A stretch of 34,585 bases of DNA from Chiloscyllium plagiosum (lineage: Eukaryota), in NCBI RefSeq assembly GCF_004010195.1, contig NC_057754.1, positions 989,293 through 1,023,877 on the forward strand. The letters run 5' to 3'. A program made the position numbers and the translations under genes. The notes beneath the pieces are model-generated. The model saw nothing but the letters and a program-made list of their open reading frames with translations, made no database searches and was not told the DNA's origin. Of the stretch, positions 1,905-34,400 are shown piece after piece. Position 1 is the first letter of the stretch. The number at the start of each line of letters is the position of its first letter.

Positions 1905-3050
1905 AGTTAGAGTCATAGAGATGTACATCACGGAAACAGACCCTTCGGCCCAACCCGTCCATGCCGACCAGAAATCCCAACCCAATCTAGTCCCACCTGC
2001 CAGCACTTGGCCCACATTCCTCCAAACCCTTCCTATTCATATACCCATCCTGATGCCTTTTAAATGTTGCAATTGTACCAGCCTCCACCACTTCCTGTGG
2101 CAGCTCATTCCATACACGTACCGCCCTCTGTGTGAAAAAGTTGCCCCTTAGGTCTCTGTTATTATCTTTCCCCTCTCACCCTAAACCTATGCCCTCGAGT
2201 TCTGGACTCCCCAACCCCAGGAAGAGACTTGACTATTTACCCCATCCATGCCCCTCATGAATTTATAAACCTCTATAAGGTCACCCCTCAGCCTCCGACG
2301 CTTCAGGGAAAACAGCCCCAGCCTGTTCCACCTCTCCCTATAGCTCAAATCCTCCAACCCTGGCAAAATCTTTGTAAATCTTTTCTGAACCCTTTTAAAT
2401 TTCACATCTTTCCGATAGGAAGGAGACCAGAATTGCACGCAATATTCCAACAGTGGCCTCACCAATGTCCTATACAGCCGCAACATGACCTCCCAACTCC
2501 TGTACTCAATATTCTGACCAATAANNNNNNNNNNNNNNNNNNNNNNNNNNNNNNNNNNNNNNNNNNNNNNNNNNNNNNNNNNNNNNNNNNNNNNNNNNNN
2601 NNNNNNNNNNNNNNNNNNNNNNNNNNNNNNNNNNNNNNNNNNNNNNNNNNNNNNNNNNNNNNNNNNNNNNNNNNNNNNNNNNNNNNNNNNNNNNNNNNNN
2701 NNNNNNNNNNNNNNNNNNNNNNNNNNNNNNNNNNNNNNNNNNNNNNNNNNNNNNNNNNNNTCAATCCTCTTTGTTACTTCCTCAAAAAATTCAATCAAGT
2801 TTGTGAGACATGATTTCCCACACACAAAGCCATGTTGACTATCCCGAATCAGTCCTTGCCTTTCCAAATACATGTACATCCTGTCCCTCAGGATTCCCTC
2901 CAACAACTTGCCACAACTGAGGTCAGGCTCACCGGTCTATAGTTCCCTGGCTTGTCCTTACCGCCCTTCTTAAACAGTGGCACCACGTTAGCCAACCTCC
3001 AGTCTTCTGACACCTCACCTGTGACTATCGATAATACAAATGTCTCAGCA
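1905..3050 (-). mobile_element. CR1-type LINE fragment interrupted by an assembly gap
   Basis: RT-region peptides NYRPVSLTS, QHGFVCGKSCLTNLIEFFEEVT, LYRTLVRPLLEYCVQFWSP, RRRLRGDLIEVYK; frameshifted. Confidence 0.9.
2525..2760. other. Assembly gap (N run)
   Basis: Run of n. Confidence 1.
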
Positions 3051-6390: not shown

Positions 6391-8106
6391 CCAGTCCCCT
6401 GGATGCTGATTAATAAAAGGATCGCTGTATCTTGAACTTTTGAGAAACGATATACAAAGTAGAAGACTGGCTACAGCAGCTTGGATAGAAATGACAAGTC
6501 TACAACACTTTTAGCAGGGTCGCATGGTATAATTAAAGATGGAAAGAAAGATAGCAGATTTGAGCACCAACATATTCTGAGGTTACTTTGCTCAGGAGCC
6601 TCCATTCTCTTCCTCTAATCTCCAGCATCTGCAGTACTCACTCCCGCCTGGTGAATAAGGACAAGCATTCGTTCATCTACATTTCCCAATACATCACTAT
6701 TTAAAGAATACCATGACTTCCTGTTTTTGACAACAAAGTGTAGAGCTTCATATTTGTTTGTGCTGTACCACATCTGCCATGTGTTTGTCCCCATGAACTC
6801 AACTTCATCTAAATCACCCTGAAACCTCCTTGCATCTTCCACACAATCACGCCCAGTTCGGTATTGTCAGCTAACTTAGAAACGGTGCATTTGTTTCCCT
6901 GATTCAGGTCAGTAATATATATCGTGAATAACTTTGGGCTGAAACATTAATCCCTGCAGTAACCCACCTGGTACAGAATCACCAGTCAAAGTTTGAGAAT
7001 CATAACCCGCTGCAATTAAATTATTGTCACAGAGTCATAAAGTTGCCCCTTAGGACAGTTTTAAATCTCTCTCCTCTTACCTTAAACCTATGCCCTCCAG
7101 TTTTGGACTCCCCTATCCTGGGGGAGAAAAGACTTTGTCTATTTATCCTATCCATGCCCCTCATGATTTTATAAACCTCTATAAGGTCACCACTCAGCCT
7201 CCGATGCTCCAGGGAAAACTGCCCCAGCCTGTTCAGCCTCTCCTTATACAGTCAATTCTTCTTTAACATGATGGTTGTGTTCTTGTGCAATCTCGCATCA
7301 TAGAAAAGTTGTGCTTTAGAAACAGCATTTAAAGCGTTGGCGATGTAATCGTGTTACAGACAGCGCACATTTTAAAAGTTTGCGCTTTTGAAATTGTCCC
7401 CAGCTCATCAGTCACGTGACGTTGAATTTTACATTAATGAAACCCCCCGTGTCAAAGCAGCTGACCTGTCGCTCAAACCCGCTAACCCTAGCAACATCCT
7501 TGTAAATATTTTCTGAACCTGTTCAGGTTTCTCAACATCTTTCCTACAGCCGGGAGACCAGAACTGAATGCAGTATTCCAACAGTGGCCTTACCAATGTC
7601 CTGTACAGCCTGATAAAAGCCCAAAGAGCAGCAGATGCTGTAAATCAGCAACAAAACCAGAAGTTGCTGGAGAAGCACAGCATCTGTGAAATCAGAGTAA
7701 CGTTTCCGGTCCGGTGACCCTTCTGAGGAAGCTCGGTGGTTAGCACTGCTGCCTCACAGCGCCAGGGACCTGGGTTCAATTCCACTCTTTGGGAGATTGT
7801 CTGCGTGGGTTTCCTCTGGGTGCTCCACTTTCCCCCCACAGTCCAAAGGTGTGTAGATTAGGTGGATTAGCCATGGGAATTGCAAGGATAGGGCGGGCAA
7901 TGGGATGCACTTTGGAGGGTCGGTATGGGCTGAACAGCCTGCTCCCACGCTGTAGGGATTCTATGGTCTTGTGCTGTGGGCTGGGGCAGAAACAGTTTCG
8001 GTTTGGGTAAGAGTTTTGGTTTTAGCCTTTTCCCTAGCGCTTCGGTGACATTCTGACTGGAGTTAAATCACTGTTATCACTGGTGTTTTTGCACTCCCTC
8101 GGCCAG

Positions 8107-8298
8107 GCCTGTGAGCTCCACGTCGCTGGCTACACTTTCGCAGTGTTGGACAATGCCTTTCTCATCCACAAAGGCTTCAAGCTGGCCAGTGAGTTCCACC
8201 CGCAGAAAGACGAGGAGAACAGACGCAACAGGATTCTTTTCCGCCAGTTCAAACAGGATCTGAAGTTAAAATACCCCGACTCGCCCCGGTGGTGCTGA
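8107..8298 (+). CDS. B4GAT1: B4GAT1 coding exon 2 (63 aa + stop; spliced protein 464 aa)
   Basis: Acceptor ggccAG|GCC after a pyrimidine tract; [25 protein letters not shown]...[17 protein letters not shown] continues FNRISQ in frame and resembles the vertebrate B4GAT1 C-terminus. Confidence 0.95.
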
Positions 8299-10342
8299 AA
8301 TCCATTCCACCCGCAGAGGAAGCTGTGACTCACCGGGGAAACCAGAGACCGACTCCCTTCTCGTTCCCAGAGACCTTGAGAGGTCATTGTGACTGATGCT
8401 TTCCTGCTTCAGTTGCAGGAAACGGAAAGACTATTTTAGCCCATCCACGTGCTGGTCTTTTAGAAATGATTTGGAGGTGCCGGTGTTGGAACTGGGGTGG
8501 ACAAAGTTAAAAAATCACACAACACCAGGTTATAGTCCAACAGGTTTATTTGGAGGCACTGTTGGGCTACAAGCTGGTGTTGTGTGATTTTTAACTTTGT
8601 CCTTTAGAAACAAACTCTTGAGACATTTTACAATTAAAAACCGAACACTGCGGATGCTGCAAATCAGAAACAGAAATTGGTGGGAAAGCTCAGCAGGGCT
8701 GGCAAAATCTGTGGAGAGAGGTCAGAGTTAACATTTCCACTCATGGAGTTGACCAGCGTTTTGGAAACAGGCCCTGCGGTCCAACTTGCCTATCCTACAT
8801 TATTCTTGTCCCTTTCACCAGTCCAGTGGCCCTTAGCATCGGTGGTAGCCAGGAAACAAAGTTGATTTTCTTTTTATTTTCAGAACGTTTGAGACTCCTA
8901 TTTTTCTTCCCCCCCGCCTGACAGAGGTAATGCTTATTTTTCCCTAGCACCATGTCATGTGTATGCAGGTGTTGGACACAGTGAAAATAAAAGTGTGTAA
9001 ATCTTTATTTTTATTCCACCACTGGGTAAACACCTAAGTGGCCACTGACAAGCAATACCCTTCTCAGAGGGCAATGCTGCATGATCAAACAGTGAAGGGA
9101 AGGGCAGGGATTAAATCAAAGGTGTTTTTATACAGATTTTTGGGGGTGGGGTAAGGTGTTAATAGGTGGAGATATAAGCCCAAAGGAAGAGAGAACAGTT
9201 GTACAAAGGAGTGGATGGTCGAGTACTTTTCCAGTACTGCACTTTCCACTCTGATCTTCAATATCTGCATTCTCTTTTTCCTAAGACCAGGATAGAATAC
9301 TGGTTTCAAGATGAAAATCCAACAATTTTGGGCACACCTTCATTTTATTAATCAGTCAGCTATCACACAACCCATAGTTAGCCACTAACAGCTATTCTTC
9401 CAGCCTGCTCATTGTCCACTTTTTGTCTGTCCAGCTGCTCTGCGCCTTTGGGCCCTATCCCTGTGGGCAGCATAGTGGTTAGCACTGCTGCCTCTCACGC
9501 CAGAGACCCGGATTCAATTCCCGCCTCAGGTGACTGTGTGGAGTTTGCATTCTCACCATGTGCTCCAGTTTCCTCCCACAGTCCAAAAATGTGCAAGTTA
9601 GGTGAATTGGCTATGCTAAATTGCCCAGTGTTAAGTGCAGGGGTAAATGTAGGGGAGTGGGTCAGGGTGGACTTGTTGGGCCAAAGGGCCTGTTTCCACG
9701 CTGTAAGGAATCTAATCTAATCATTTACTCCTCAACCTCTCTCCTCACGTATCGTTATTTTCTGCATAGTAGCCACAAAGGAGTTCCTTCCATTAGTTAA
9801 GAGCAGATTCTGCCAAACTTGCTGAGCTTTTCCAGTAACCTTTTGTTTCTGGGACTTTTTGGTTTGATAGTGTCTTTCAAAGTTTGGTTACACCTTAAGT
9901 GATCATTGGAAAGTTGTGTGGGGGTGGGGAAAGAAAAGAAAATGTAAGAGAAAGTAGCTCCACAAAACAGTGTTATTGACTTAAAACAGTAAGCTATTAA
10001 ATGGTGTTTGCTCAGCTACTCCTGTGATCATGGCTGACCTTATATAACCTTCAACTCCACTGTCCTCAGTTACCTTAAAAACATCAGCCTTCTGGATTCA
10101 TACCCCAAGTTCTCATTAGAAACAGTTGCCTCTTTATTTAGTATTTGCAATGGTCTCAAGGTGAGGAGACACCTTTTACCTGGTGGCATCCCTAAGAATC
10201 TGAACTCTAAATATCCAGGAGGTTGGTGAAGCTGCCTGTTGAGTGTGCACTCTAATAACCAGGATATCTAGATCACATGGATGCAATAGCACTGGGTCAG
10301 AAACACCCAGGAATCATGTTTGTACATTTTCTATCATGAATG

Positions 10343-10348
10343 AATAAA
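10343..10348 (+). terminator. Candidate B4GAT1 polyadenylation signal AATAAA (alternative at 8986-8991)
   Basis: AATAAA at the end of non-repetitive 3'UTR-like sequence, just before the opposing gene's 3' end. Confidence 0.45.
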
Positions 10349-10505
10349 TTATTTAAATTATCACCAGTTGTGGAATATTCAATTCCCCACAAGTCAGGAG
10401 TCAGCACTCCAGCTCTTTTCCCACCCAAACGGAAGCTGGTCCATTGACAACTTCACAAACATGACAATAGACACCAAAGACAAGTGGATCAGGGAAAAAA
10501 AAAAG

Positions 10506-10511
10506 TTTATT
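10506..10511 (-). terminator. Candidate polyadenylation signal of the snoRNA host gene
   Basis: + strand tttatt = AATAAA on -, followed by a U-tract, ~525 nt into the terminal exon that starts after the acceptor TTTTTTTTTTTGCAG (AG at 11036-11037). Confidence 0.55.
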
Positions 10512-12220
10512 TCAATTAGACCACAAACAAAGCTGAACAAGTTTCTGGTTCAGGAAGCAGCTCAAAGTGGGTAATATCAACATATTCCATACACAAAGCA
10601 TGTAATGGAAGTATCTGTCCAGTGATGATCAAATCCCTTGCATCTTCACCTGTGAAAAGAAGCACAATATTATAGCCCTTTAAATCAAACCAGCCGATGG
10701 CTGTAATCTGCACTGAGCTGTACGCTTCTGTACTGCTGTAGCCCTCAACCCTTAAGACAAGCAATGTTCATGTGGAGACCTAAATCATTGCAAGTCTGGG
10801 ACAATCATCTAGCATTGCCACTCATTGATCTTGTTCAGTTCTGTAGCAAACGGACTACTAAATGATCAATGTGTATTGTTAAACTTCAACTAACCTTTAA
10901 TCGAGCTCAGCATCTCTTTGCAGAGCACCCACTTGTAGTTATGTGTGCGCAGCATGGTGCTCTGGTTCTGGAAGGCACTGCTGGGTCTGTGCCAATGGTC
11001 ACAATTAGTGGGTACTGTGCTCTTCACCCTGATACCTGCAAAAAAAAAAAGGGAGGGATGGGCACAATCTTAGTTTCACACCATGAAAGATGACCTAGCA
11101 CTGGAACACACCTGTCCCCAGACACAGCTCTTCCTGTGCTACAGGTACCAGTGGGTCCAACCATCTCAGCTTCTGGCTCCTCATAGCATTAAACAGTGAA
11201 CACTTCACTAAAGTAGTTGTTGTCAAGTCCCTGCAGGGATCGGAGGGCCACAGTGCACAGCAAGTGTTTGAAAACCTCCCCTTGCTGCTAAATGTTAGTA
11301 CTGTCCCACCCCAGTGGACACTGTAGGGAGACAGAATCCTGACTGCTATTCCCTATTGTAGGCACACTGTGGTGTTTCACAGAGATGTCCCTATTTCTCC
11401 TGTGCTCCTCTCCTTGGTTTGTACTGGATTGGAATGCAGACTAACTACACTCCTTTAATAAGTGTCTGAGCTGCAATGATTAAATACAATCTTAAATTAT
11501 CTTGGAATATGTTGAAAGGAGGGATTACATTATTCAAAACCAGCAACCCAAACTAAAAAAAAAAGACTAACAGCAATCTAGATTTGTTCAATATGGTATC
11601 AGTGGAATGGCTGATCTTTTACTATATCTGTCATATGATCCTGCCCCACTAGCTACCTGATGAAGGAGCAGCACTGAAAGCTAGTGCTTCCAAATAAACC
11701 TGTTGCGACTATAACCTGGTGTGATTTTTAAACTTGGTCCACCCCAGTACCTCTCCATCTTGTACTGCTAGTGCAAGTTAAGAATCTGATCACAGCTTGC
11801 AATCACAATAAAACCAGTTCATAAACATGGGAGATAAACAGCAGCTCTGTTAATCTTAGCCTGAAAGACATCAGCAGCCTACATGATCACATGGGGGAAA
11901 GCAGTGAAAAGGTCACAAGACAAAATGGTCAGCTGATTGATTAGCGTAACCTCACCTCAATGCTGATGGTGTACATAAAGTTGAAAAAAAAAGTGTGGTG
12001 CTGGTAAAGGGCTTATGCCCAAAACGTCGATTCTCCTGCTCCTCGGATGCTGCCTGGCCTGCTGCGCTTTTCCAGCACCACACTTTTCAACTCTGGTCTC
12101 CAGCATCTGCAGTCCTCACTTTCTGTGTACATATCAAACTCAAATACCCAAGTGTATTAGAAATGCAAAATACTGATTCAATGAGTGAGTTTTCCTCACT
12201 GTGGCAAGCTTTTTTTAAAG

Positions 12221-12288
12221 TGGCAATCAGACATACTAATCAGTCATTGGGTAAGTCAGACTGGGGCAGTAAGTGTCATCACTTGCCA
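12221..12288 (-). ncRNA. SNORD31: Box C/D snoRNA U31
   Basis: Minus strand TGGCAA-GTGATGA...TACTGCCCCAGT-CTGA...TGACTGA...CTGA-TTGCCA; 6-bp terminal stem; guide antisense to 28S ACUGGGGCGGUA as in human U31 (one U:G). Confidence 0.92.
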
Positions 12289-12634
12289 GAACAAAGCAAG
12301 CACTCATCTTCACCACACTCTAGGTTCAGGAAGATTTCAGGGAAGGAGGTTGGGAGTTACACCCATGCCCCTCCAGAATGACAATAAGGGACAGGGTGAA
12401 CTCAGCTAATTGGAGTTTGATCAGTATAATTTATGTGAGGAACCAAACTCAGAAGGCAGCTGTCAGATCATTTCAGAGCCCAGAGATCAGAGGATATAAA
12501 AGGCACAGATCACTGAGAAACCTACCTGGGTTTTTTAAGAAGATTTTGAAGTCAGCCACATCTATAACGAAGGAGAGAAAGATCAGTACACAGCTGGTGC
12601 TTCCCCACAACAATCCAACCCCTACTGTTTTACA

Positions 12635-12712
12635 CTGCATCAGATATTTTTGTGACATCAGAAATTGTTCAGGTGAACGAAACTCCACTTTAAGAATATC
12701 ATCAGACTGCAG
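12635..12712 (-). ncRNA. SNORD30: Box C/D snoRNA U30
   Basis: C box CTGATGA, guide GGAGTTTCGTTCA, D' CTGA, C' CTGATGT, D CTGA, stem CTGCA/TGCAG; D box ~77 nt from the next acceptor; lies between U29 and U31. Confidence 0.85.
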
Positions 12713-13030
12713 CATTAAAGAGCACTCCTCAGGAGGAACTCCTTTCTCCAGTGACCCACATCTGTTCTGAAAGGGCTTCAGTCACTGTTAAGGCATTGAG
12801 ATGTGCAGCATTTTGTAGCCACATGACCTTGGACACCAGCCCCCACAGCATTCCCCACCTCCCTTCCACATGGAGGACCATCAGCCTACATCCCATGTAC
12901 AGAGCCTTTGAACCACAAACACTCACCAGGTCAGGACAAGTCCACCATCTTATCTCAGGCTGAAAGAGAAGGAGAAAAGGATGGTTAGGAACTGAAGCCA
13001 GTACTGCCTTTGGTCTGAAGCGCAGCCTGG

Positions 13031-13099
13031 AGTCACTCAGGGTGTTCAATATCTTTTCACACAGGGTCAAAGTGAGCTAAGAATCATCATCACCAGACT
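13031..13099 (-). ncRNA. SNORD29: Box C/D snoRNA U29
   Basis: GTGATGA...TAGCTCACT-TTGA...GTGAAAA...TGAACACC-CTGA, stem AGTC/GACT; closely resembles human U29; D box ~76 nt from acceptor. Confidence 0.9.
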
Positions 13100-13686
13100 G
13101 TTCACAGAAAACAGCAATGTCCCCTTTTGAGAAGAGCCTCCAGGCTGCAGCCTCAAGCCAAGAAACACTGATTGTCCCTTTTGTTCAGGAGCAGACCACC
13201 CGCCCACTGAAGGATGGCCAAGTCCTGAAGCTGTGATTCCCCTGGGAGTCAGTGGGTTCAACATCACTTGGACTGGACTAGTTTGTTTGGGGGAAGGTGG
13301 GAGGGGGAGCCATGATGGGAGAAACTCACTGAATAGCAGTGGAAGGAGTGGGAAGAATAGAAGGCAAAGATCCTCACCCACTGCACCACAGTGTACAGAG
13401 CTAGGGACAGAGTGTAACACCAGGGAACTGTTCAGGTGCAGCAGTCACCTTCCAGAGTGGTGTCTGTGGACCCACCTCTTGGGAAACTGGTGTAGACCAA
13501 GGCACAGCACTCTCATCACAGCTCAACCAAAACAGAGGACACTGCTCATTGCACCAGGAAGACCACTCACCTGATGTGTCTGGACACCAGCTGTCTTCAG
13601 TCACCTGGAAAAGAACGCAACAGCATTGGAAAGAAGCACTCCCCTGCACACTCCCCAACCCAGCATGTCCATTGACGCAGCTACAT

Positions 13687-13812
13687 TGTCCCATCAGACT
13701 GTTTTGGAAAACAAGCAATCCTCATTTCACACTGAGAGAGACAGTGGGTTCACCTTTGCAGGTTCTGCCTCTACACAGCATGTAAGACTGGAGACTAATC
13801 ATCACAGGGACA
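13687..13812 (-). ncRNA. SNORD22: Box C/D snoRNA U22 (18S pre-rRNA processing snoRNA)
   Basis: ~126 nt; C box GTGATGA, GTCTTAC, conserved core AGAACCTGCAAAGGTGAACCCACTG, D box GTCTGA; terminal stem TGTCCC/GGGACA. Confidence 0.92.
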
Positions 13813-14445
13813 AAAAAAACCCCACTTCCGGGATTCTTTTGGGTGGTGGGGTCGCAGGAGGAGAAGTTCAGCTGAGACACTGTTGGAAAGGCTAGAGGAC
13901 AAAGATTCAACAGGCACTTGTAAAAGGTATGAACAAAGCCTGAATTAAGTCAAAGGGTGGTTGGAAACGTGAAACAGAGGCCACGATCCATGATCATCCT
14001 CAATGGCAGTGCAGGATAGAAAAGGCTTCAGTGGCTTTGTTCTTAATGTGTATATTTTTAAAAACAGTTAAGGGACTAATTGCTGATCTGAGTCAGCTAT
14101 GACCAAGAGGAAAACTCCTCGCATGGTCTGACTTGAGTTTCAACAGTTTCAATCTATTGTGGATAACCAGAGTTGGCTTGGACACGATTCCAACCATATT
14201 ACAGGGATTTGGTACCCCCTCTGCACAGTGAAATGTAAACACCCCCCACCCCAAGAAACCAGACTCCAGGCTGGGCCTTCAATGTGCATTAGGAACAAGA
14301 ACTGCTGGCAGCACTAGATCAGGTTTCTGCTAAGAAAAGGGAATCACTCACCAGATATACACTTCAGAGTCAGACCTGAAACAGAAAACAATCAGATAAA
14401 TAGCTGCAGGCTGATATCAGGGAACAACCCTGGGAAAGGCTAGCT

Positions 14446-14533
14446 GGTTTGATCAGGGCTTTGGTGATTTCAATGCATCATCGACAATGTCGTCCGCCCA
14501 TAGGCCAACACCTGTTTATCATCATTTCAAACC
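14446..14533 (-). ncRNA. Unassigned box C/D snoRNA, predicted 18S rRNA guide
   Basis: GGTTTGA-A-ATGATGA...CGGA(D'?)...CGATGA(C')...TCACCAAAGCC-CTGA-TCAAACC; perfect C and D boxes, 7-bp terminal stem, D box ~77 nt upstream of acceptor at 14376-14377. Confidence 0.85.
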
Positions 14534-15828
14534 ACAGGTACTGCTGTTCCAGAATTAAACCATGTTACGTGAACGTGACAAACCCAGAGAATGCAGTGAT
14601 GCTAACCCATCATCCCCCCTGCTGGTGAACTCCTTACTACAGTCACTTGAGCTGATTGGGAGGATCACCCAACCTCACTGGATCACTTCCAATCAGTCGG
14701 TAACTATTCTGTATCACATGAGGGAAGATTAATACCTCAGCACCTCGCAGCTGTTAACACAACCAGGCTGAATTCAGCACCCACCTGCTTGGGGGGCCTG
14801 GAGGACTGTTTTGCTTATCCCAGAAACCTTCACTTCCCCCATCTCCTGCATTTATCCATCCTGACATCAGTCCAGGTCATGTCCAGCTGTCCTATAAGCT
14901 AGCCAGTAAGGGTCAGTAACCTGTACATCCAGCCCACTGCAGCCTGGACTTCCTCTGTTCTTGCACACTTCAGAACACCACTGCACTGTGGCTCGGAATC
15001 AGGTTCAGACAAACAAGACTTCATTCCAAAACATCTGGAGCAGGCCAGCTCCCAGCAGCTGCCCCACAGCCAGATCACAGCTCAGAGCATAGACATTGAG
15101 ACACTGATGTCCTATCTTTGAAGGCATGTTGTCCTCCTGAAGTTAATTCAGCACTGACCACAGGGATTATCCATTCAGGATGGGTTCTAGTGTACCCTGA
15201 TGGAACTCACCAGAGTGGTTGAGCAAATTTTAAGTGGTCACTTGACCAGCAGTAGGAAGGAGATGGGCAGATTTAGCCAATAGAGTAATGTTGTGCTAGA
15301 AAAGCACAGCAGGCCAGGCAGCATCTGCGAAGCAGGGGAAAAAACACAAATCACAAAAAGAAAAAAAAAAATCAACATTTAGGGCAAAAGGCCTTGATGA
15401 CGGGTTTTTGCACAAAACGCAGGTTCCCCTGCTCCTCAGATGTTCCCTGACCTGCTGCGCTTTTCCAGCGCCCCACTCTGATCTCCAGCATCTTCAGTCC
15501 TCACTTTCTCCTAGATTTAACAAATACACAATCACCCCCTTTTGTCAATTAACATCCCAGGGCAGTCAACTAGAGCAACGACTTCTGAATTGGTAGAATG
15601 GGAGTCGCAACCCCCAAACCCATCAGTAAAAGCACAGATTTGACCATCTTGGACAACAGCAGCCCCAGGAAAGCAGAACCCTCCCTCTTCCTGAACATTC
15701 CTACCTGAGCAAGGAGGAACTTCAGTACTTGCTGCAAGGTTACAGTGCAGGACAGAATCTGTCGAGACAAAAAGATTGATGTTAACTTCGACAGCCAACA
15801 GCACAGAGAGAGCAGAGAATCTATTGCT

Positions 15829-15899
15829 GCTCTCAGTCCAAGTTAGGCATCAACTTGAATTCAGATATATGCTTGTCTGTTTTTAGATCATCACTGAAA
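15829..15899 (-). ncRNA. SNORD27: Box C/D snoRNA U27
   Basis: GTGATGA...GACAAGCATAT-AT-CTGA...TTGATGC...CTGA; guide antisense to 18S AUAUGCUUGUC (Am27 site); D box ~73 nt from acceptor. Confidence 0.92.
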
Positions 15900-16854
15900 C
15901 AGCAGGTGGAGGCCACAAATCACTGATCCTCACTTACTGTGAGTGAGTACAAAATCTTCACAGGTCAGTCAACCCTTCACTATCCGTCAGTGAGATGAAC
16001 ATCCAGAGTTATTAGTAAGGCCACAAAGCATCACTTCAGGAACAATTCCAGCAAAATCTCTTTACTCTTCCATGGGATCACTGGCAAGGACAGTGTTTAC
16101 TACCTCCTTAAAACAGTGTCTGCACAGGGCCATTTAAGTCAATCTATCCTGTACATCTGGATTCACGTGAGTTCAAAACACGGTCCTCCACAGAAGAAAG
16201 TTAGTGATCATGAGGCCAGATTTCAATTCCAGAATATTAAAATTCCAACACTGTTTGATAATGAATTCATCTCCAAATAAATCAGTCTGCAGTTTCAGTT
16301 ACTTATCCAGTCACGTGAGCATTAGGTCACGTCACCACAAATTTCAGCAACTCACTTCTCAGCCCAAGATTATCAGGGAGGATCAAAAACTGGATTAAAA
16401 AGCAGATGAACTGCAGATGCTCTACATCAGAAACAAAAACAGGTTGCTGGAAAAGCTCAACAGGTCTGGCAGCATCAGTGCAGACAAGTCAGTTAACATC
16501 TTGGGTCCAGTGACCCTTCCTCAGAACCAGACTCAAACCAATAACTGACTTCACTCCACAGATGCTGCCAGATGTGTTATACTTCTCTAGAAATAAATCC
16601 TTCTTCCACTTAACCCAGAACTTTAAAAACATCTCCAAAATCTTAAACAAACCAATCATCTGCCAAGTCTGTGCATTTGTGACAATACCCCAGCACTACT
16701 CAATTTTATCAATGGCCCTTAAAAGCAACACATCTCGCACCCAGGATCCATACTGTGTCCTCCTATTCTACATCAGCACAACTCCCTATTCTCAAGCTAA
16801 TTTGGCCTTTGATGTATCCAGACTGCAAATTCAGAGTATCTAAACCAGACATGA

Positions 16855-17150
16855 TTAGATTAGATTACTTAGTGTGGGGAAACGGGCCCTTTGGCCCACC
16901 AACTCCACACCGACCCTCTGAAGAGCAACCCACCTAGACCCATTCCCCTACATTTACCCCTTCACCTAACACTATAGGCAATTTAGCATGGCCAATTCAC
17001 CTAACCTAATTTTCAGACTGTGGGAGGAAACTGGAGCACCCGGAAGAAACCCACACAGACACCGGGAGAATGTGCAAACTCCACACAGACAGGTGCCGGA
17101 GGTGGGAATTGAACCCAGGTCTCTGGCACTGAGGCAGCAGTGCTAACCAT
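16855..17150 (-). mobile_element. tRNA-derived SINE (HE1-like) in a host-gene intron
   Basis: Same core and ttaga tail as 3795-4100. Confidence 0.8.
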
Positions 17151-17665
17151 TGTATCAGTAGCAGTTTAAAACCAAGCCCTGAATTCTGAGTTGTGCTGAA
17201 GGACATTTGATTTTTAATGCTACATGCACTCATGTATAGGAGTGTAGTGTACAATGTCACCACACACAAGGCATCATCTTACGTACAAGCACCTAGGTAC
17301 AGGATCTTAAGATCAGAGTAGAAAGAAAGAACAAGGTGAAGTTAAACATTGCAGTAACTGCACACCGACATAATGCTCACCTTGAGGTTAGCCATGACTG
17401 CAGCCAAGTTAGAATCTGTAAAAAAAAATGCAATCCTTCAAAAACTTTGCTGGTGTCCAAGTCAAGTTAGTGTCACTACCAGGAGGATTTTCATCAACTT
17501 TATGGAACAGAGACCCTTAGCAAATTAAATAGGGACCCAGTAGCAGCTGCCAAAGCACACTGACAGCTCAGACAGAGGTTTTACATCAAGCATCACATAA
17601 CTTCTACAGGAAGCATGGCTCTGCCTGGGTAATGTTTCATTGTGAATGAGATTATGCAGCTGCTC

Positions 17666-17746
17666 AGTGCTACTCAGCTAAAAACTTCAAAGTTTCTACA
17701 TGGAATATGCAGAAAGAGAGAGTTCATCTATCATCTTTGTAGCACT
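17666..17746 (-). ncRNA. SNORD26: Box C/D snoRNA U26
   Basis: 8-bp stem AGTGCTAC/GTAGCACT, C-like AGATGA, guide TGAACTCTCTCTT antisense to 28S AAGAGAGAGUUCA, D' CTGC, D CTGA. Confidence 0.88.
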
Positions 17747-18734
17747 AGTCACATACTGCCCCCCCCCCCAGCTCACTGAATCCCACACTGTTGGAAAGGC
17801 TTCCCTCCTGGGCAGCTGGGGGCATACTAAATTGCCCAGAGTGCTAGGTGCATTAGCCAGAGGGAAATAGGTCTTGGTTGGTTACTCTTTGGAGGGTGGG
17901 TGTGGACGTGTTGGGCCGAAGGGTCTGTTTCCACGCTGTAGGGAATCTAATCTAATGCCCAGGATGAGTATTAATTAGAATCCAATAAACGGCCAAATTT
18001 TTGTTCACACCTCATCTCAGGCCCAGCCAGAATTCTGAAGCCAATACAGTGCCCTATTTCGCCAGCAATTTCCACTCACCCATCTCGTTTATTCCTTTCA
18101 GCATCACCTTGGTCAACTCGCCTGAAAAACAATAAAGACTGATTATTAACACAAGCACACTGCCCCCCTCCCAATAATTTTAGAATAAAGAGGGAGGCCA
18201 CTTAGTATAGAGAAGAGTATGTTGGCTATTCACAGAAGTGAACAAATCCATAACACAGCACATCAACGCACAACTCCCAAGAGCCCCCAAATCAACGACT
18301 TAATGCTGATAATACTGCTTATAGTCTTGCCCCAGTTCAGCTCATTGGTTTTAGACACCAACAGGCACAGAATCCCCAAACAATCTCAGTTTAGTCCCAG
18401 AACGGGATTTTAAAAGAATCTCAACACCAGGTTTATTTGGAAGCACTACTTAGTCTTCAGGCAGTCGACCACGTGAAGGAGCAGTGCTCTGAAAGCTAGT
18501 GCTTTCCAAATGACTATAACCTGGTGTTGTGAAAGTTGTAACTTTGTCCACCCCACTCCAACACCAGCAGCTCCAAATCATACCCCAAGAGCTAGGGGCT
18601 TGCCCCAAACCCAAAACAGGGATTTAAAATTCAACACATACACCATAATTGTAAGTACAAAAAGCTCCCTGGGTTAAGTACAGACCGAGACAGTACATAA
18701 GTTGTGTAAAGAACTGGAATGTGCACGTTCAGGA

Positions 18735-19120
18735 CATAAGGAAAGCACATGGCAGAGGGAAGGGGGAGAGAATATTAAGGAAAGCACATGGCATAGGGAA
18801 GAGGGAGAGAATATTTAGGAAAGCAGATTGCAAAGGGAAGGAGGGAGAGAATATTTAGGAAAGCAGATTGCAAAGGGAAGGAGGGAGGAGGGAGAGAATA
18901 TTTAGGAAAGCAGATTGCAAAGGGAAGGAGGGAGAGAATATTTAGGAAAGCACATGGCAAAGGGAAGGGGGAGAGAATATTTAGGAAAGCAGATTGCAAA
19001 GGGAAGGGGGAGAGAATATTTAGGAAAGCAGATTGCAAAGTGAAGGGGGGATATTTAGGAAAGCAGATTGCAGGGGGGAGGGGGGAGGAAGAGAAAGAGG
19101 TATTTAGGAAAGCTGATGGG
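18735..19120. repeat. Purine-rich ~39-40-bp minisatellite (~9-10 copies) in host intron 1
   Basis: Repeating gagagaatatttaggaaagcagattgcaaagggaagg. Confidence 0.9.
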
Positions 19121-19203
19121 AAAGGGAAAGTGAAAAAGGAAAACCCCTATAAATGAACCGTTGCCCGTGGTGGGACGGGAGCCCGGTTTGCAAGCAGCAG
19201 CAG

Positions 19204-19290
19204 CCCTCGTTCTCAGAACACCGAGTAAAGCTCTAATCACAGGGAGGGTCATCACAGGTCTGTGACTGGTAGTGCTCATCATCGAGAGGG
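19204..19290 (-). ncRNA. SNORD25: Box C/D snoRNA U25
   Basis: C box ATGATGA, guide TCACAGACCTGT (antisense to 18S ACAGGUCUGUGA, Gm1490 site), D' ATGA, C' GTGATTA, D CTGA; lies in intron 1. Confidence 0.92.
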
Positions 19291-19444
19291 AAGGCAGGCA
19301 GGCAGGCGCCATCGGGGGAAAAAAAAGAGACGCGGGGGTCAGCCGAAGGCGGGAGGATGGCGATGGATGCGGATATGGGGCTAAGGGAGGTCGGATGGCG
19401 GTGGATTGTCCAGGTCCCCCCCCTCCCTGCTCTCCCTAACTCAC

Positions 19445-19720
19445 CTCCAGAGGCTGCCACAAAATGGCCGACTGCCGCCCGCGCGCTCCCTTTTGTAGTA
19501 GGGCCGCCCCGGGGCATGCTGGGAGTAGCGACCCTCCAGCCACAATTACTAAATAAAAATACGCTTTCTTTAAAAACCCCAATCCAGGTTATTCCATTAT
19601 TTGACTGGAAATAAATCGATGCGACTTTTTCGAAAAGAAAAAAAGGATAGGTCCAACCACTTCCGTGTTGGCTGATTCTTTTTGGCGCGAAAGGGGATGG
19701 TTGTTTCCCGCCAAACGGCT
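19445..19720 (-). promoter_or_regulatory. CpG-rich promoter and exon 1 of the host gene
   Basis: Donor GAG|GTGAGT at 19445/19444; initiator/YY1-like GGCCATTTT (19461-19469); TATA-like TACAAAA (19491-19497); Staf/ZNF143-like TACTCCCAGCATGCCCCGGG (~19509-19528); ETS CACTTCCG (~19658); E2F-type TTTGGCGCGAAA (19681-19692) and TTTCCCGCCAAA (19704-19715). Confidence 0.7.
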
Positions 19721-20357
19721 GCAGCCCCAGTTCCTTCATCTCCACTTTATCTTTCAACAGAGTTGCACATCAACTTACAAGTTTTACATTAAAGAATGTG
19801 AGGATTGCTGCTAGCTCACTTTTTTTATTTGGAAAGAGGCACTAAAACCAGCCCAGTTTTACTTACCCCACAACTCCCACTCCTCATCCCAATTCAATTC
19901 CATCTTGGCAATAAGAACTGTGCCCACTCTCCCTGCCCAGGGGTGGTGGAGCTTGGAGGGATTGTCAAAAAGGAGTGCAGAATTTGGGGGGGGAACTGTT
20001 CCACTCAGCAGAGAGGTCAACATTCCTGATGAAGGGCTTTGAATAGATGGAACAAAAACAAATTGCTGGAAAAGCTCAGCAGGTCTTCTTTCGGTTTTTG
20101 TTTAGAATTTGGTAGGGTTTGATAGGGTTAGGGACTGGCACAGTTATGAATGCCCCCTTACATGCCATAAAACTCTTTATCATTAAATCAGAGAAGATGC
20201 AACCAGTGCCTCAGTTGACTAAGTGGCCTCCTTAAAGTCTGTGCCACATTCTAATTCAATAACAAACACCCCACAATATTTCAATTTGTAGTTTATGAAC
20301 ACAGGATGAATTAGTCCAATCAGCCCATTAAGCTCCGTAATCAATAAGGTTATAGCT

Positions 20358-20605
20358 TGCACTTTTGTATGTAACGGTATTGTCTAATGTACAAATGTCA
20401 TTGTCACTGTCTTGTCATACATGGAACTGGGATTTGAGGTTTGTCCTCATCTCCCTGTAAAATGGTTGAATGGTAGGGTTTGGGGCCTAGCTTTGCTGCT
20501 CCTCTCCCTTGTAACATTGCTGTCTCTTATGTACAGCTGTAAATGTTTTTTGTAAACTGTTTGTTTGTAATTTGTTTAATAAAATATACAAAACAGGAAA
20601 AAAAA
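20358..20605 (+). mobile_element. 5'-truncated polyadenylated retroposed insertion with 15-bp TSD
   Basis: aataaggttatagct at 20343-20357 and 20606-20620; insert ends with AATAAA (20578-20583) and an A-rich tail. Confidence 0.75.
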
Positions 20606-23128: not shown

Positions 23129-24469
23129 ATCTGCAGACCTCACTCTCTCCTAGTATTAGCCACAAGAAATGCAGGATTACAGGGATAGGGTGGGTATCTG
23201 CAATCCTCACTCTCTCCTAGTATTAGCCATGGGAAATGCAGGATTACAGGGATAGGGTGGGTATCTGCAGTCCTCACTCTCTCCTAGTATTAGCCACGAG
23301 AAATGCAGGATTACAGGGACAGGGTGGGTATCTGCAGTCCTCACTCTCTCCTAGTATTAGCCATGGGAAATGCAGGATTACAGGGACAGGGTGGGTATCT
23401 GCAGTCCTCACTCTCTCCTAGTATTAGCCACGAGAAATGCAGGATTACAGGGACAGGGTGGGTATCTGCAGTCCTCACTCTCTCCTAGTATTAGCCACGA
23501 GAAATGCAGGTTTACAGGGATAGGGTGGGTATCTGCAGTCCTCACTCTCTCCTAGTATTAGCCATGGGAAATGCAGGATTACAGGGATAGGGTGGGTATC
23601 TGCATCCTCACTCTTCTCCTAGTATTAGCCATGGGAAATGCAGGATTACAGGGACAGGTTGGGTACCTGCAGTCCTCACTCTCTCCTAGTATTAGCCACG
23701 AGAAATGCAGGATTACAGGGATAGGGTGGGTATCTGCAGTCCTCACTCTCTCCTAGTATTAGCCACGAGAAATGCAGGATTACAGGGACAGGGTGGGTAT
23801 CTGCAGTCCTCACTCCCTCCTAGTATTAGCCACGAGAAATGCAGGATTACAGGGACAGGGTGGGTATCTGCAGTCCTCACTCTCTCCTAGTATTAGCCAC
23901 GTGAAATGCAGGATTACAGGGACAGGGTGGGTATCTGCAGTCCTCACTCTCTCCTAGTATTAGCCACGGGAAATGCAGGATTACAGGGACAGGGTGGGTA
24001 CCTGCAGTCCTCACTCTCTCCTAGTATTAGCCATGGGAAATGCAGGATTACAGGGACAGGTTGGGTACCTGCAGTCCTCACTCTCTCCTAGTATTAGCCA
24101 TGGGAAATGCAGGATTACAGGGATAGGGTGGGTATCTGCAGTCCTCACTCCCTCCTAGTATTAGCCACGTGAAATGCAGGATTACAGGGACAGGGTGGGT
24201 ATCTGCAGTCCTCACTCTCTCCTAGTATTAGCCACGTGAAATGCAGGATTACAGGGACAGGGTGGGTATCTGCAGTCCTCACTCTCTCCTAGTATTAGCC
24301 ATGGGAAATGCAGGATTACAGGGACAGGGTGGGTACCTGCAGTCCTCACTCTCTCCTAGTATTAGCCATGGGAAATGCAGGATTACAGGGATAGGGTGGG
24401 TATCTGCAGTCCTCACTCTCTCCTAGTATTAGCCATGGGAAATGCAGGATTACAGGGATAGGGTGGGTA
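23129..24469. repeat. 67-bp minisatellite, ~20 copies
   Basis: Unit atctgcagtcctcactctctcctagtattagccatgggaaatgcaggattacagggatagggtgggt with period 67; explains the repeated 61-aa ORFs. Confidence 0.95.
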
Positions 24470-27349
24470 TGGATGAGCTGCTGTTCGGAGGGTCGGTGTG
24501 GACCTGATGGACCGAATGCCTTGCTTTCCACACTGTCCAGATGCTATAACTCGATTAACGTCAGAGTGCTGGAAAAAAAACATAGTGAGAGAGAAAGAGG
24601 ATGCAAGGACAATTTGGCAAAGTAGACAGGTGGGTGGCTGGAAGAACACAGCAAGCCAGGCAGCATCAACACTATGGGTGTAACCCTTCTTCAGGACTGA
24701 GGGTGGGTGTGGGGGGCAGCTGCAGATAAAGGGAGTGGTGGGGACAGGGTAGTGAAATGGTGATAGGTGAAGACAAGTAGAGGGTACGACCTGGTAGGTT
24801 ACACCCAAAACGTTGACTTCTCCCCCTCCTGAGATTGCCTGGCTTGCTCTGTTCTTCCAGCCTCCTGCCTGGCTACTTTGGATTCCAGCATCTGCAGTTT
24901 CCTTTGTCTCTTGTCTAGAACAATTTGGCAAAGCAGATATATGCAATGAGTGGCAGTAGATGGCAGTATTGCACCAAGGATAATAATTAAGTGACATATA
25001 CAGCTCTGATTTGAACCAGGAAAAAGCAGCAAACAATTCAAATCAAAGAGTTTTTTTTCTGCTGGATCATGTCGGACATACACAGAGGTCTGGCAGCATT
25101 TGTGGAGAGAGAATTGGAATGAATGCGTCATGTCTAGGCCAGACAGAGAATGCTTTATAGAACAGTATAGAGTTATAAAAATTTAACAGCATGGAAATAA
25201 AGAAACATCAAAAATAGAACCAGTCTTAGGCCATTCGGCCCTGCCAGCCTGCTCCCCCATTCAGTATGGTCACAGCTGATCATCCAACTCAGCTCTCTGT
25301 TCCTGCTTTATCCCTCCCCATACCCTTCCATTCCTTCAGCCCCAAGAACTGGATCAAATTCCTTCTTGAAAATGTTCAATGTTTTGGCCTCAACTGCTTT
25401 CTGTGGCAGAGAATTCCCCAGGCTCCCCACCCTCTGGGGGAAGATGTTCCTCATTATCCTACCTCGTATCTTTAGACTGTGACCCTTGGTTCAGAAAACC
25501 CCAGCCCCCAGCCCCCCCCCCCCCCCCCCCCCCCACTCCTCGCCCTGGTCATCAGCAACATCCTTTCTGTGTTTCCCCTGTCTATTCCTGTTAGAACGTT
25601 ATACGTGTCAAAAAGGAAACCATTCATCCATTGTGTCCATGCCAGCCCATCAAGCATCCATCTAATCTAATCCCATTTTCCAGCACTTGGCCTACAGTTT
25701 TGTCTGCAATGTGTTTATGTGCTCATCTCAATACTTCTTAAATATTCTGAGCGTTCCTGCCTTTATCACCCTCAGGGTGAAAAAATACTTCCTCAAACCC
25801 CCTTAAAACCTCTTGCTCACTACCCAAAATCTACGCCTCTTGGTTACAGACCCCTCTCCTACGGGAACTATCTCTCCCTCTATGCCGCTCAGAACTTTGT
25901 GCACCTCCATCAGGTCTCCCCCCACCTCACCTCAGCCTTCACTACTCTAAGGAAAACAATCCTGGCCCATCCAGTTTCTCTTCATCACTGAATCACTCCA
26001 GCTCAGGCAGCGTCCTGGTGAATCTCCTCTTCACTCCTTCCAGCACAATCACATCCTCCCTTTAGTGCGGTGACCAGAACTTCACACTGTACTCCAGCTG
26101 TGGCTGAACTAACATCCATACAGCTCTGTCATATCCTCTGCCCTCCTTCCAGCGCAATCACACCCTTCCGATAGTGTGGTGACCAGAACTTCACACTGTA
26201 CTCCAGCTGTGACATAACTAACATCTTATACAGCTCTGTCATATCCTCCCTGACCTTGCATTCAATGCTTTGAATGACACTCTATGTCTATTTTCGATAA
26301 ATCACCATTCAGGCCCCAGTGGAATTTTGTATCCAACTCTGGACCCTGCACTTTAGAAAGAATATCCAGACCCTTAGAGGGTGGGGAGGGAAATTTACTG
26401 GAATGGCCCCAGGGATGAGGGTCCTCAGTGAACGAGGAGAGAGACCGGAGACGCTGTGGGATTGCTCCCCCAGGAGTGGGGAAAGTTCGGGGGGGGGGGG
26501 GGGGGGGAGGAGATTGAATCGAGGCGTTCGGAATTAGGAAGGGGCTGTCGGATTGAGTCAATGTTTGCTCCCAGCGACAGGACAGTCACAGACTGAAGGG
26601 GTTCAGGAACAGATTCCGAGGGAGGGAGAAGAAGATGAAGAGAATATTTCATTTGAGGCAGTGAGTTGTTGTGATCTGGGACCATGCTGCCTGAAAGGGC
26701 AGGGAGAGAGCAGATTCAATTGTAACTTTCAAAACAGGGGAGTATCAGGGAAATAGTAGGAAAGGAGGAATTTAAAGAGAGCTGCGGAGAAAGGGGATAG
26801 TTTCAATAGCTCTCTCTCAAAGGGATGGAGCAAGCGACCAACCCTGTGCCCTGTGACTCTCTGTTTTTTAAGTTATAAAGCCACAATTTTATGAGGTACA
26901 GCACAGAGTACAGAGGTCAGATTGTGAATCAGATCCACCATGCATGATTTGCACTGAACTGTACTTTGGTAATATCTGTCCTGGTTTATGGTTAAAGCAG
27001 CCATTAAGGGCCCTGCAGAATATACTCAGCATAGTTTTATTATGGTGATTAACAGCATTGGGTAATTGAGTGAGGTTAGGCTTTTTATATAATACAGCAC
27101 AAAGCCTATCAGAAAATGTAAACAATAAGATACAAGGTCCTCAGGCTTGTTAATGTGTAAACTAGCCAATAGACTGAGCAACAGTTTAATCTGGTAACTG
27201 CCATTGTGCAGGAGGTAGCTTTCTCACAACAGGGTTGGTCGCTCAATATTAATGATCTGACAGTACTCTCTCATGATTGAACCTCCAAGGGTACAACAAT
27301 CCCTCAGCACTGATCCTCCGACAGTGCCCACACCCTCAGTGCTCCACAA

Positions 27350-28230: not shown

Positions 28231-28850
28231 CTGACCCTGCAGTGCTCCCTTGACACTGACCTTCTGACAATGTGGTACTCCCTCAGAACTAATCCTTTGA
28301 CAGTGCAGCACTTCCTCAGCACTAATTATCTGATAGTGCCCACTCCCTCAGCACTGTCCCTTCAATAGTGTGGTACTCCCTCTGCGCTGGCCCTCTGACA
28401 GTGCGGCACACTCTCATACTGATCCTCCAACAGTGCAGCAATCCCTTAGCACTGACCGTCTGACAATGCGGCACTGCCTCAGCGCTGACCCTCCGACAGT
28501 TCAGCACTCCCTCAGAACTGACCCTCCAACAATGCAGCACTCCCTAGTGCTGCCCCTTCAACAGTGCGGTGGTCCCTCAGCACTGACCCTCCGACAGTGT
28601 GGCACTCTCTCAGCAGTGACCCTCCGGTGGTGTGGCACTCCCTCAGTACTGACCCTCTGGCAGTGCGGCACTCCCTCAGCACTGACCTTTCGACGGTGCA
28701 GCGCTTCCTCAGCACCGACCCTCCGACAGGATGACACTCCCTCAGCACTGATCCTCCGACAGGGTGACACTCCCTCAGCATTGACCCTCCAACAGTGTGG
28801 TGCACCCTTTGCACTGACCCTCCAACAAATGCAACATTCCTTAGGTACTG
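28230..28850. repeat. Diverged ~33-bp tandem repeat
   Basis: Unit ctgaccctccgacagtgcggcactccctcagca; produces the spurious long ORFs at 28322-29109. Confidence 0.9.
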
Positions 28851-33855: not shown

Positions 33856-33869
33856 AAGTTCCCATCATA

Positions 33870-34400
33870 TATTGACAGGCTGGTTAAGAAGGCGTTTAGC
33901 TCACTTGCTTTTCTTGCTCAGGCCTCTGAATAAAGGAGTTAGTACGTTATGTTGAGATTGGACAGGATGTTGGTGAGGTCTCTTCTGCAATACTGTGTCC
34001 AGTTCTGGTCACCCAGTTACAGGAAAGATATAGAAAGCTGAAGTGGGTTCAGAAGAGATTTTGCACAATGTTGCCCGGCATGGAAGATTTGAGTTATAAA
34101 GAGAGGTTAGATAGGCTGGGATTTTTTTCACTGGAGTGCAGGAGGTTGACAGGCGACCTTATAGAAGTTTACAAAATCATTAAGGATATAGGTAGAGTCA
34201 ATTGTAGTTGTCTTTTCCCTAGGATGGGTGATTTCAAGACAAGGGGGCACAATTTTAAGGTGAGAGGAGAGAGAGTTTAAAAAAGACATGAGGGGCAAAT
34301 GTTTTACACAGAGCGGGGTTCACATGTGGAATGAACTTCCCGGAGTGTTGGATGTGAATATAGTTATGACATTTAAAAGATACTTGGATAAGTACACGAG
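33870..34400 (+). mobile_element. CR1 LINE 3' fragment
   Basis: MLPGMEDLSYKERLDRLGFFSLECRRLTGDLIEVYK. Confidence 0.85.

Follow-up and report, generated by a model that had tools for sequence, protein, structure and literature searches.

A highly probable ortholog of the snoRNA host gene SNHG1/UHG in the bamboo shark Chiloscyllium plagiosum

The minus strand of positions 10490-19467 in a 34,585-nt stretch of the Chiloscyllium plagiosum genome (GCF_004010195.1, NC_057754.1, 989,293-1,023,877 of the forward strand; hereafter, the window) very probably carries the bamboo-shark ortholog of SNHG1/UHG (u22hg), a ~9-kb gene of roughly ten short exons (Table 1). Eight C/D snoRNA-like RNAs lie on this strand in the order 25-26-27-NET1-22-29-30-31, and Rfam matches, motif counts, and guides confirm the number, strand, and order given in the original prediction. 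Its assignment of the locus to SNHG1/UHG with a non-coding host is likewise supported by family matches, collinearity with frog, and short exons. We found a one-strand cluster of U22 and U25-U31 family members containing seven of the eight families (three above gathering, two at E ~1e-5, and two weak with the right guides), a conserved snoRNA order, and short exons without a conserved ORF. To call the gene "hidden" was an overstatement, as a comparison of u22hg between human, frog, zebrafish, and pufferfish had already been published (PMC3245925). The host gene is already known in fish and frog, and the new point is a cartilaginous-fish member; our literature search did not find a description of a shark SNHG1.

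Table 1. Predicted features in and around the candidate SNHG1/UHG locus (window coordinates)
Feature	Position	Strand	Remarks
Promoter-like stretch	19491..19510	-	GC box 19504-19510 and TATA-like TACAAAA 19491-19497; ~30 nt above candidate start
Predicted exon 1 (23 nt)	19445..19467	-	begins CCATTTT, start inferred; donor GTGAGT
U25/SNORD25	19213..19282	-	C box to D box; Rfam weak
39-nt minisatellite, 8.7 copies	18739..19084	.	intron 1, between U25 and acceptor
Predicted exon 2 (42 nt)	18080..18121	-	
U26/SNORD26	17674..17737	-	Rfam above gathering
Predicted exon 3 (35 nt)	17381..17415	-	
U27/SNORD27	15833..15894	-	Rfam below gathering; D' guide to 18S A27
Predicted exon 4 (54 nt)	15705..15758	-	
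Putative NET1/mgx18S-U252 ortholog	14453..14525	-	D guide to 18S; frog match
Predicted exon 5 (24 nt)	14352..14375	-	
U22/SNORD22	13694..13805	-	pre-rRNA processing snoRNA; Rfam above gathering
Predicted exon 6 (34 nt)	13571..13604	-	also in sister-species model P0121
Ninth C/D-like stretch	13432..13519	-	both boxes perfect; 7-bp terminal stem and a long hairpin within
Possible optional mini-exon (23 nt)	13378..13400	-	splice signals; skipped by sister-species model
U29/SNORD29	13037..13090	-	Rfam below gathering; D' guide to 28S A4493 (by eye)
Predicted exon 7 (33 nt)	12927..12959	-	also in sister-species model P0121
U30/SNORD30	12640..12705	-	Rfam weak; C box starts CTGATGA
Predicted exon 8 (36 nt)	12526..12561	-	also in sister-species model P0121
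U31/SNORD31	12227..12282	-	Rfam above gathering
Predicted exon 9 (141 nt)	10895..11035	-	also compared with P0121
Predicted last exon (~160 nt)	10490..10649	-	AATAAA at 10511-10506

At the gathering threshold, Rfam gave three matches in the whole window: SNORD22 (13688-13810, 69.8 bits, over the full model), SNORD26 (17669-17742), and SNORD31 (12221-12289). An E-value scan of 9500-20500 returned 20 matches, among them SNORD27 (46 bits, E 9.9e-6) and SNORD29 (41.3 bits, E 1.3e-5), neither of which reached its gathering score, and a weak SNORD25 match far below threshold (23.5 bits, E 0.31). SNORD30 was also weak and far below threshold in a local scan (21 bits, E 0.3), where it ranked second to SNORD11B. 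The Rfam check that had been proposed for SNORD22 and SNORD25-31 was therefore positive for 22, 26, 31, 27, and 29, weak for 25 and 30, and without any SNORD28. Five matches with E <=1.3e-5 fall in the vertebrate family order on a single strand.

With thresholds that had been set after the sequence was inspected, a motif search for a strict C box, a D box, and a stem of at least 6 bp found six candidates on the minus strand and none on the plus strand (null mean 0.07, and never more than 2 across 300 resamples), and acceptor-to-donor mini-exons numbered eight on the minus strand and none on the plus strand (null mean 0.78, maximum 4). The same strict C/D search gave two matches in the remaining 25.6 kb of the window. 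Guides were paired with human and frog rRNA and with one unrelated partial 18S rather than with shark rRNA, and by eye the base at guide position +5 was the published methylated base for each guide. Also by eye, complementarity was found for the D' guides of U25 (12 bp with human/frog 18S, target G1490 in human numbering, a pairing also set against X. laevis SNORD25), U26 (28S, target A389), U30 (28S A3804, 13 bp with 2 G-U; 18S A1383, 11 bp with 1 G-U), and U31 (28S G4166, 12 bp with 1 G-U). The U27 guide formed a 12-bp duplex on the partial 18S locus, L001, that none of 40 shuffles matched. L001 came from metagenome scans for vertebrate-type 18S that returned zero and then three loci, one of which is 18S, covering the 5' 468 nt; it is a non-circular test for U27 only, and the remaining pairings in that comparison are chance matches.

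The original prediction had left the fourth RNA unassigned. It can be assigned: judged by its sequence, 14453-14525 is a NET1/mgx18S-U252 ortholog, neither U28 nor new. Its 15 nt of guide and D box (an 11-nt guide plus the box) are identical to X. laevis xtmg18S-U252, a single exact match that was not seen in any of 100 shuffles, and whole-length comparison with a single frog sequence, by eye, gave a 17-nt 3' identity and a common GGACGACA. The D guide pairs over 10-11 bp with 18S and places frog U252, human-numbered U286, at +5. Like frog NET1, with which it shares its D-box guide, the RNA stands directly before U22 in the host, although its 5' half and middle have diverged from the frog RNA. 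On L001 the duplex was equalled by 3/40 shuffles, in a circular comparison, as L001 had been fetched by the target motif. NET1 has been reported in frog, zebrafish, fugu, lizard, and opossum, a list from which cartilaginous fish are absent; the U252/U286 site of 18S is methylated in frog and zebrafish (SSU U286/U287 in the latter) but not in human. In the main texts covered by our literature search, NET1 was not described. An 8-9-nt 28S match seen by eye in the 5' half, as a candidate second guide, was dismissed because the match was too short and a canonical D' box was lacking.

Splice-like signals predict one snoRNA per intron, and junctions 6-10 are also predicted from a sister-species model. 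The exon range of 23-54 nt proposed earlier holds for exons 1-8, but exons 9 and 10 (141 and ~160 nt) fall outside it. Weaker acceptors upstream of exon 9 (e.g., 11861) could add an exon. Measured from the D-box end to the acceptor AG, the proposed spacing of 73-88 nt was recovered for five of the eight RNAs (73, 76, 88, 76, and 77 nt for U27, NET1, U22, U29, and U30), and for U25, U26, and U31 the next modelled acceptor is 1090, 257, and 1190 nt away. PMC10234308 cites an optimum for C/D snoRNAs of 40-50 nt to the branch point and a distance of at least 100 nt for most of those expressed in human. Given these distances, the 73-88-nt spacing, described earlier as the known optimum, is compatible with splicing-coupled assembly but no demonstration of it. 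The idea that distal snoRNAs have compensating stems was rejected: it was true for one of three, U26, whose unusually strong flank duplex (-27.4 kcal/mol, z -4.1) is the strongest flanking stem of the set. Around 19301-19700, GC content is 0.64 and CpG o/e 0.74-0.97, and consensus GC-box and TATA-like motifs precede the candidate start. That putative start has two pyrimidines and then A, short of a 5'TOP tract; 5'TOP is reported for fish u22hg (PMC3245925) but is not evident in shark.

As the original prediction had it, the ~9 kb contain no credible ORF: none of the 24 scanned, from 25 of at least 80 aa, reached the Pfam cut-off, and two sub-cut-off matches in the span (E 0.003 and 0.006) were taken as noise. 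The modelled spliced exonic RNA is ~580 nt long, and its first AUG frame ends after 39 codons. Because this early stop would lie ~260 nt above the last junction, the spliced RNA is probably removed by nonsense-mediated decay. The sister-species model P0121, a computed C. punctatum protein, spans junctions 6-10 only and includes no more of exon 9 than its two ends; it agrees with four of the predicted junctions, although frameshifts are required. Its junction peptides agree at 5/8 residues for exons 6 and 7, 7/8 for 7 and 8, 5/7 for 8 and 9, and 6/7 for 9 and 10, whereas unspliced read-through scores worse (3/8, 5/8, 4/7, and 3/8, respectively). The P0121 matches are spread over different frames of the window, and exon 8 contains a stop, such that the ORF is broken between the sister species, and P0121 belongs to a one-member cluster.

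Xenopus tropicalis snhg1 carries 25, 26, 27, 28, mgx18S-U252, 22, 31a, 29, 30, mg28S-G3524, and 31b, and thus has counterparts for all eight shark RNAs in the same relative order within its 11-RNA cluster (PMC6984369). A random order would give this 8/8 collinearity with p 2.5e-5. Frog differs in having U28 and NET2/mg28S-G3524, neither guide of which was found in the shark span (for NET2, between U30 and U31), and two U31, against no clear second U31 in shark; the distance from U25 to U31 is ~5 kb in frog and ~7 kb in shark. U28/SNORD28 was absent from the shark span both by Rfam and by a search for a U28-type guide (18S C1391) allowing at most one mismatch plus G-U. Zebrafish and pufferfish u22hg have seven families in common with human, exons <50 nt, and short ORFs, and in zebrafish U30 is present twice, U31 three times, and intron positions are altered (PMC3245925). 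Because these accepted orthologs also lack U28, its presence is not a condition of membership (PMC3245925).

Human SNHG1/UHG shares seven of the eight snoRNA families with shark, six same-order guides with the same predicted targets, and short non-coding exons, and it has a ninth, duplicate-type snoRNA (PMC3245925). Contrary to the original prediction, the order itself is not the annotated mammalian one: annotated human reads 25-26-27-28-29-30-31-22, whereas shark U22 is fifth, as in Xenopus. Six of the seven families in common are nevertheless collinear with annotated human, U25, 26, 27, 29, 30, and 31 keeping their order; with U22 annotated last, U28 present, and NET1 not expressed, human differs from shark in all three respects. 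The ninth human snoRNA is presumably an extra copy of U22 that lies in the U28-U29 interval. SLC3A2 presumably lies head-to-head upstream of human SNHG1; an ORF scan of the 15 kb upstream of the shark locus showed no head-to-head protein gene, with a reverse-transcriptase fragment as the only match above cut-off among 119 ORFs of at least 52 aa. B4GAT1 (100% identical to Chiloscyllium plagiosum) lies downstream of the locus.

Could the locus be a partly or wholly decayed snhg1 copy, paralog or pseudogene, while a functional cluster lies at another site? U25, U30, U27, and U29 score below Rfam gathering, the C boxes of U26 and U30 are off consensus, and repeats lie inside several introns. Against this, guides, boxes, stems, and splice signals are intact while spacers diverge, a pattern of selection; the Rfam models appear to lean toward mammals, and the sister species retains exon boundaries, all of which makes decay highly improbable. 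Similarly, we regard a diverged U28, or an orphan confined to sharks, as a very unlikely identity for the fourth RNA. That RNA does occupy slot four, that of human U28, its middle is unlike frog's, no Rfam NET1 model is available as a test, and neither a NET1 nor any other Rfam family matched it; yet SNORD28 was not among its 12 weak matches, the span holds no U28-type guide, and an exact NET1 guide is found at the NET1 position ahead of U22. Extremely unlikely is a host that encodes a small protein, either in a 64-codon AUG frame over the last two exons, which ends just ahead of the poly(A) signal, or as the C. punctatum "hypothetical protein". The last exon matches a database protein at 86%, but that protein is a singleton and the only match among three candidates, starts within the U22 intron, and in the window loses its frame twice and runs into a stop; the 64-codon frame is preceded by upstream AUGs, and no Pfam match was found. 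In the annotation of the sister species, chiPu_0020842 looks like translated snhg1 exons and is probably a false protein.

The ninth C/D-like stretch, 13432-13519, was overlooked in the original prediction and may be chance, a decayed U31 copy, or an orphan RNA. Perfect boxes and a 7-bp stem arise by chance in 4-7% of resamples. The stretch folds at -34.8 kcal/mol, occupies the slot of frog SNORD31a, and has a possible mini-exon after it; inspection by eye gave nine pairs (four G-U) between its guide slot and the U31 target, and TGACTG as a sequence common to the stretch and the U31 C' box. However, it has seven weak Rfam matches and none to SNORD31 or another credible family, its similarity to shark U31 is not significant (p >=0.1), and it lacks both a canonical D' box and an intact SNORD31-type D' guide. 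Moreover, it lies just 30 nt from the acceptor of a mini-exon that the sister-species model skips, and 26/40 shuffles paired as well as its D guide on the fetched loci. The stretch is therefore unlikely to be either an orphan C/D RNA that is expressed or a decayed copy of the extra U31 present in frog between U22 and U29. A ninth C/D RNA that belongs to no family and has a long hairpin within it would be a doubtful addition to the reading of an ancestral jawed-vertebrate order given below.

For the SNHG1/UHG ortholog, we infer a transcription start, splicing, processing, rRNA methylation, and decay of the following kind. RNA polymerase II would initiate near 19467, yielding a ~9 kb transcript with about ten short exons. 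Splicing would free the introns, box C/D proteins would occupy the C and D boxes, and exonuclease trimming of each intron would leave one snoRNA. U25, U26, U27, U29, U30, and U31 would guide fibrillarin methylation at conserved 18S/28S sites, U22 would assist 18S pre-rRNA processing, and the NET1 ortholog would guide 2'-O-methylation of 18S U252 (frog), or U286 in human numbering.

The earlier proposal that the arrangement predates the split between sharks and bony vertebrates is soundly drawn, and points to a jawed-vertebrate origin of the cluster. The mid-cluster U22 and the presence of NET1 look ancestral, and U28 may be younger. It is quite possible, though we put it forward tentatively, that the shark retains the ancestral order, with NET1 and U286 methylation present before the split and lost in placentals, the terminal human U22 a later copy, and U28 a gain on the tetrapod side. 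Frog U28 still guides U30 sites, and U28 plausibly arose from a U30 duplicate for that reason. If this history is true, the shark locus would provide no C1391-equivalent methylation, and we predict that shark 18S is methylated at the U286 equivalent, like that of frog and zebrafish and unlike that of human. The general understanding of how snoRNA host genes work is unchanged by the shark locus, which would supply a cartilaginous-fish outgroup for gains and losses in a classic snoRNA host gene.

The original prediction placed eight C/D snoRNAs on the minus strand, in an SNHG1/UHG (u22hg) host gene, and a box-and-stem scan recovered the same loci on this strand and none on the plus strand. Strict settings yielded 6 hits where the null averaged 0.07, and relaxed settings yielded 9 hits, representing 8 loci (U31 was found twice and U29 was missed), where it averaged 0.26. 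These counts far exceed the null. The proposed identities, SNORD22, SNORD25-27, and SNORD29-31, were borne out in part by Rfam. In the whole window, SNORD22, SNORD26, and SNORD31, all on the minus strand, were the three families that passed the Rfam gathering threshold, and a permissive scan of 9500-20500 (20 matches) added SNORD27 (E 9.9e-6) and SNORD29 (E 1.3e-5). SNORD25 was weak in this permissive scan (E 0.31), SNORD30 (E 0.3 in a local scan) ranked second, below SNORD11B, and SNORD28 had no Rfam match.

The methylated rRNA base pairs with position +5 of a C/D guide. Pairing by eye on human and Xenopus rRNA alignments (PMC6984369, excerpt), a reference that is not from shark, placed G1490 at +5 of the U25 guide (12 bp), and A3804 of 28S (13 bp) and A1383 of 18S (11 bp) at +5 of the U30 guide. 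Since their Rfam matches are weak, U25 and U30 were assigned because their guides pair at these targets. On the same alignments, U26, U27, U29, and U31 target A389, A27, A4493, and G4166, respectively, which are tabulated targets of human SNHG1 snoRNAs (PMC13507652, excerpt). For U27, a script run on one partial 18S locus gave 12 bp and put the target on base 27 of the Rfam match; 0/40 shuffles were as good.

The fourth RNA, left unassigned in the original prediction, matched no family in a local Rfam scan. Its C and D boxes are perfect, its stem is 8 bp long, and the guide and D box at its 3' end are the same as those of X. laevis mgx18S-U252 (PMC8797249 Table S3). This 15-mer occurs exactly once in the window and in 0/100 shuffles; with two mismatches allowed, it is matched in 18/100. 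Position +5 of the guide falls on frog 18S U252, or U286 in human numbering (18S alignment, PMC6984369, excerpt), and neither a U28-type nor a NET2-type guide was found in the host span. From the exact guide and D box, the +5 position on U252, and the lack of a U28-type guide, we infer that the fourth RNA is the orthologue of mgx18S-U252, which has been named NET1, is described as having no expression in human, and has copies in zebrafish, fugu, lizard, and opossum (PMC6984369, excerpt). The shark locus lacks U28, as do zebrafish and pufferfish u22hg (PMC3245925, excerpt). The Um252 modification is reported as partial in X. laevis and absent in human (PMC8797249, excerpt), it went undetected in X. 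laevis in an earlier study (PMC6984369, excerpt), and both U286 and U287 are methylated in zebrafish (PMC7668251, excerpt).

All eight shark RNAs (8/8) are collinear with the Xenopus tropicalis snhg1 cluster, which reads 25, 26, 27, 28, mgx18S-U252, 22, 31a, 29, 30, mg28S-G3524, 31b (PMC6984369, excerpt), with a p of 2.5e-5 for a random order. Human UHG is described with nine snoRNAs of eight types (PMC3245925, excerpt), in an annotated order of 25-26-27-28-29-30-31-22 (PMC6984369, excerpt). Six families therefore keep the order first thought to be common to mammalian UHG; U22, which comes last in the annotated human order, and the fourth slot do not. The ninth human snoRNA is presumably a second U22, lying in the middle slot between U28 and U29.

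Ten exons are predicted by GT-AG signals. A mechanical mini-exon scan, with thresholds set post hoc, returned exons 2-8 and one further candidate, 8 in all where the null averaged 0.78, and none on the plus strand. For five RNAs, the D box lies 73, 76, 88, 76, and 77 nt from the acceptor, reproducing exactly the predicted range of 73-88 nt. The modelled acceptors of U25, U26, and U31 lie 1090, 257, and 1190 nt from the D box, and weaker acceptors are present closer to all three. Published work puts the best spacing at 40-50 nt from the branch point and describes stems that compensate where the distance is larger; in a genome-wide survey, the majority of expressed C/D RNAs in human lay beyond this optimum (PMC10234308, excerpt). 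Among the distal U25, U26, and U31, only U26 has an unusually strong flank duplex. The two 8-nt word copies around an insertion in the U31 intron are possibly a target-site duplication.

The span was predicted to hold no credible ORF, and indeed none of the 24 ORFs scanned (of 25 of at least 80 aa) reached the Pfam cut-off. The last-exon frame gave the one database protein match among three candidates, P0121 (chiPu_0020842), a 115-aa hypothetical singleton protein of the sister species C. punctatum that is a computed annotation rather than an observation. It spans exons 6, 7, 8, both ends of 9, and 10, and its junction peptides share 5/8, 7/8, 5/7, and 6/7 residues, every one better than read-through. 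The alignment requires frame changes and crosses one stop in the window. P0121 thus lends indirect support to the predicted junctions and, because of the frame changes and the stop, counts against a protein; it appears to consist of translated snhg1 exons and part of the U22 intron, and the gene model chiPu_0020842 is probably spurious. Once spliced, the modelled host RNA comes to 582 nt, with its last junction at nt 422, a first AUG frame of 39 codons that stops at nt 160, and a longest frame of 64 codons. Since blocking decay stabilises UHG and GAS5 (PMC6954239, excerpt), decay of the shark host RNA may reasonably be expected. A candidate start lies ~30 nt downstream of a TATA-like word, within a GC- and CpG-rich stretch; its pyrimidine tract is not clean.

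A C/D-like stretch between U22 and U29 combines perfect boxes with a 7-bp stem and a long hairpin; in the frog cluster, the corresponding slot holds an additional U31 (PMC6984369, excerpt). Matches of this kind arise in 4-7% of resamples, an Rfam scan gave it no family match, its likeness to shark U31 is not significant, and the P0121 model gives it no intron of its own. It is thus unlikely to be a ninth RNA.

The host gene and B4GAT1 are arranged tail-to-tail. In protein comparison, the first B4GAT1 exon matches Chiloscyllium plagiosum at 100% identity, with Hemiscyllium at 88% and Stegostoma at 79%, which confirms the shark source first assumed. In human, the neighbour of SNHG1 is presumably SLC3A2. 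The copies of the tandem repeat ahead of B4GAT1 are 100% identical, which points to an expansion that is very recent or to an artefact of assembly.

Features of the window, in window positions
Feature	Position	Strand	Description
Tandem repeat	7-540		perfect, GT-rich, 50-nt unit, 10.7 copies, immediately ahead of B4GAT1 start
B4GAT1, two coding exons	542-1783 and 8098-8298	+	Pfam PF13896
Assembly gap	2525-2760		236 N, in B4GAT1 intron; LINE-type RT-like fragments also in this intron, by eye
Host gene	10490-19467	-	predicted SNHG1/UHG orthologue
P0121 alignment	10519-13694	-
U31-intron insertion	11969-12132		~155 nt, flanked by two copies of 8-nt word; internal inverted repeats, by eye
11-nt word	~13250-13262	-	in common with U22 core, after a word resembling a C box (chance expectation ~0.25, estimate)
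C/D-like stretch	13432-13519	-	doubtful ninth RNA
Fourth RNA	14453-14525	-	putative NET1 orthologue
Intron 1 minisatellite	18739-19084		39-nt unit
Acceptor-like site	19113		pyrimidine-rich start of minisatellite, 100 nt below U25 D box
Tandem array	23129-24470		67-nt unit, 20 copies, 96% match, young
Tandem array	28254-28827		33-nt unit, 17.5 copies, 73% match
Reverse transcriptase fragments	32579-34280		broken, LINE-type (RVT_1, E 2e-19)

UHG is known from human, frog, zebrafish, and pufferfish (PMC3245925, excerpt) and from alligator, turtle, and some birds (PMC4378963, excerpt), and is described as deeply conserved (PMC4408788, excerpt). No description of a shark UHG was found in the mostly non-subscription literature, and the Rfam-positive RNAs may already be marked in public shark annotations. 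The useful additions of the shark locus are the predicted NET1 and the frog-like order.
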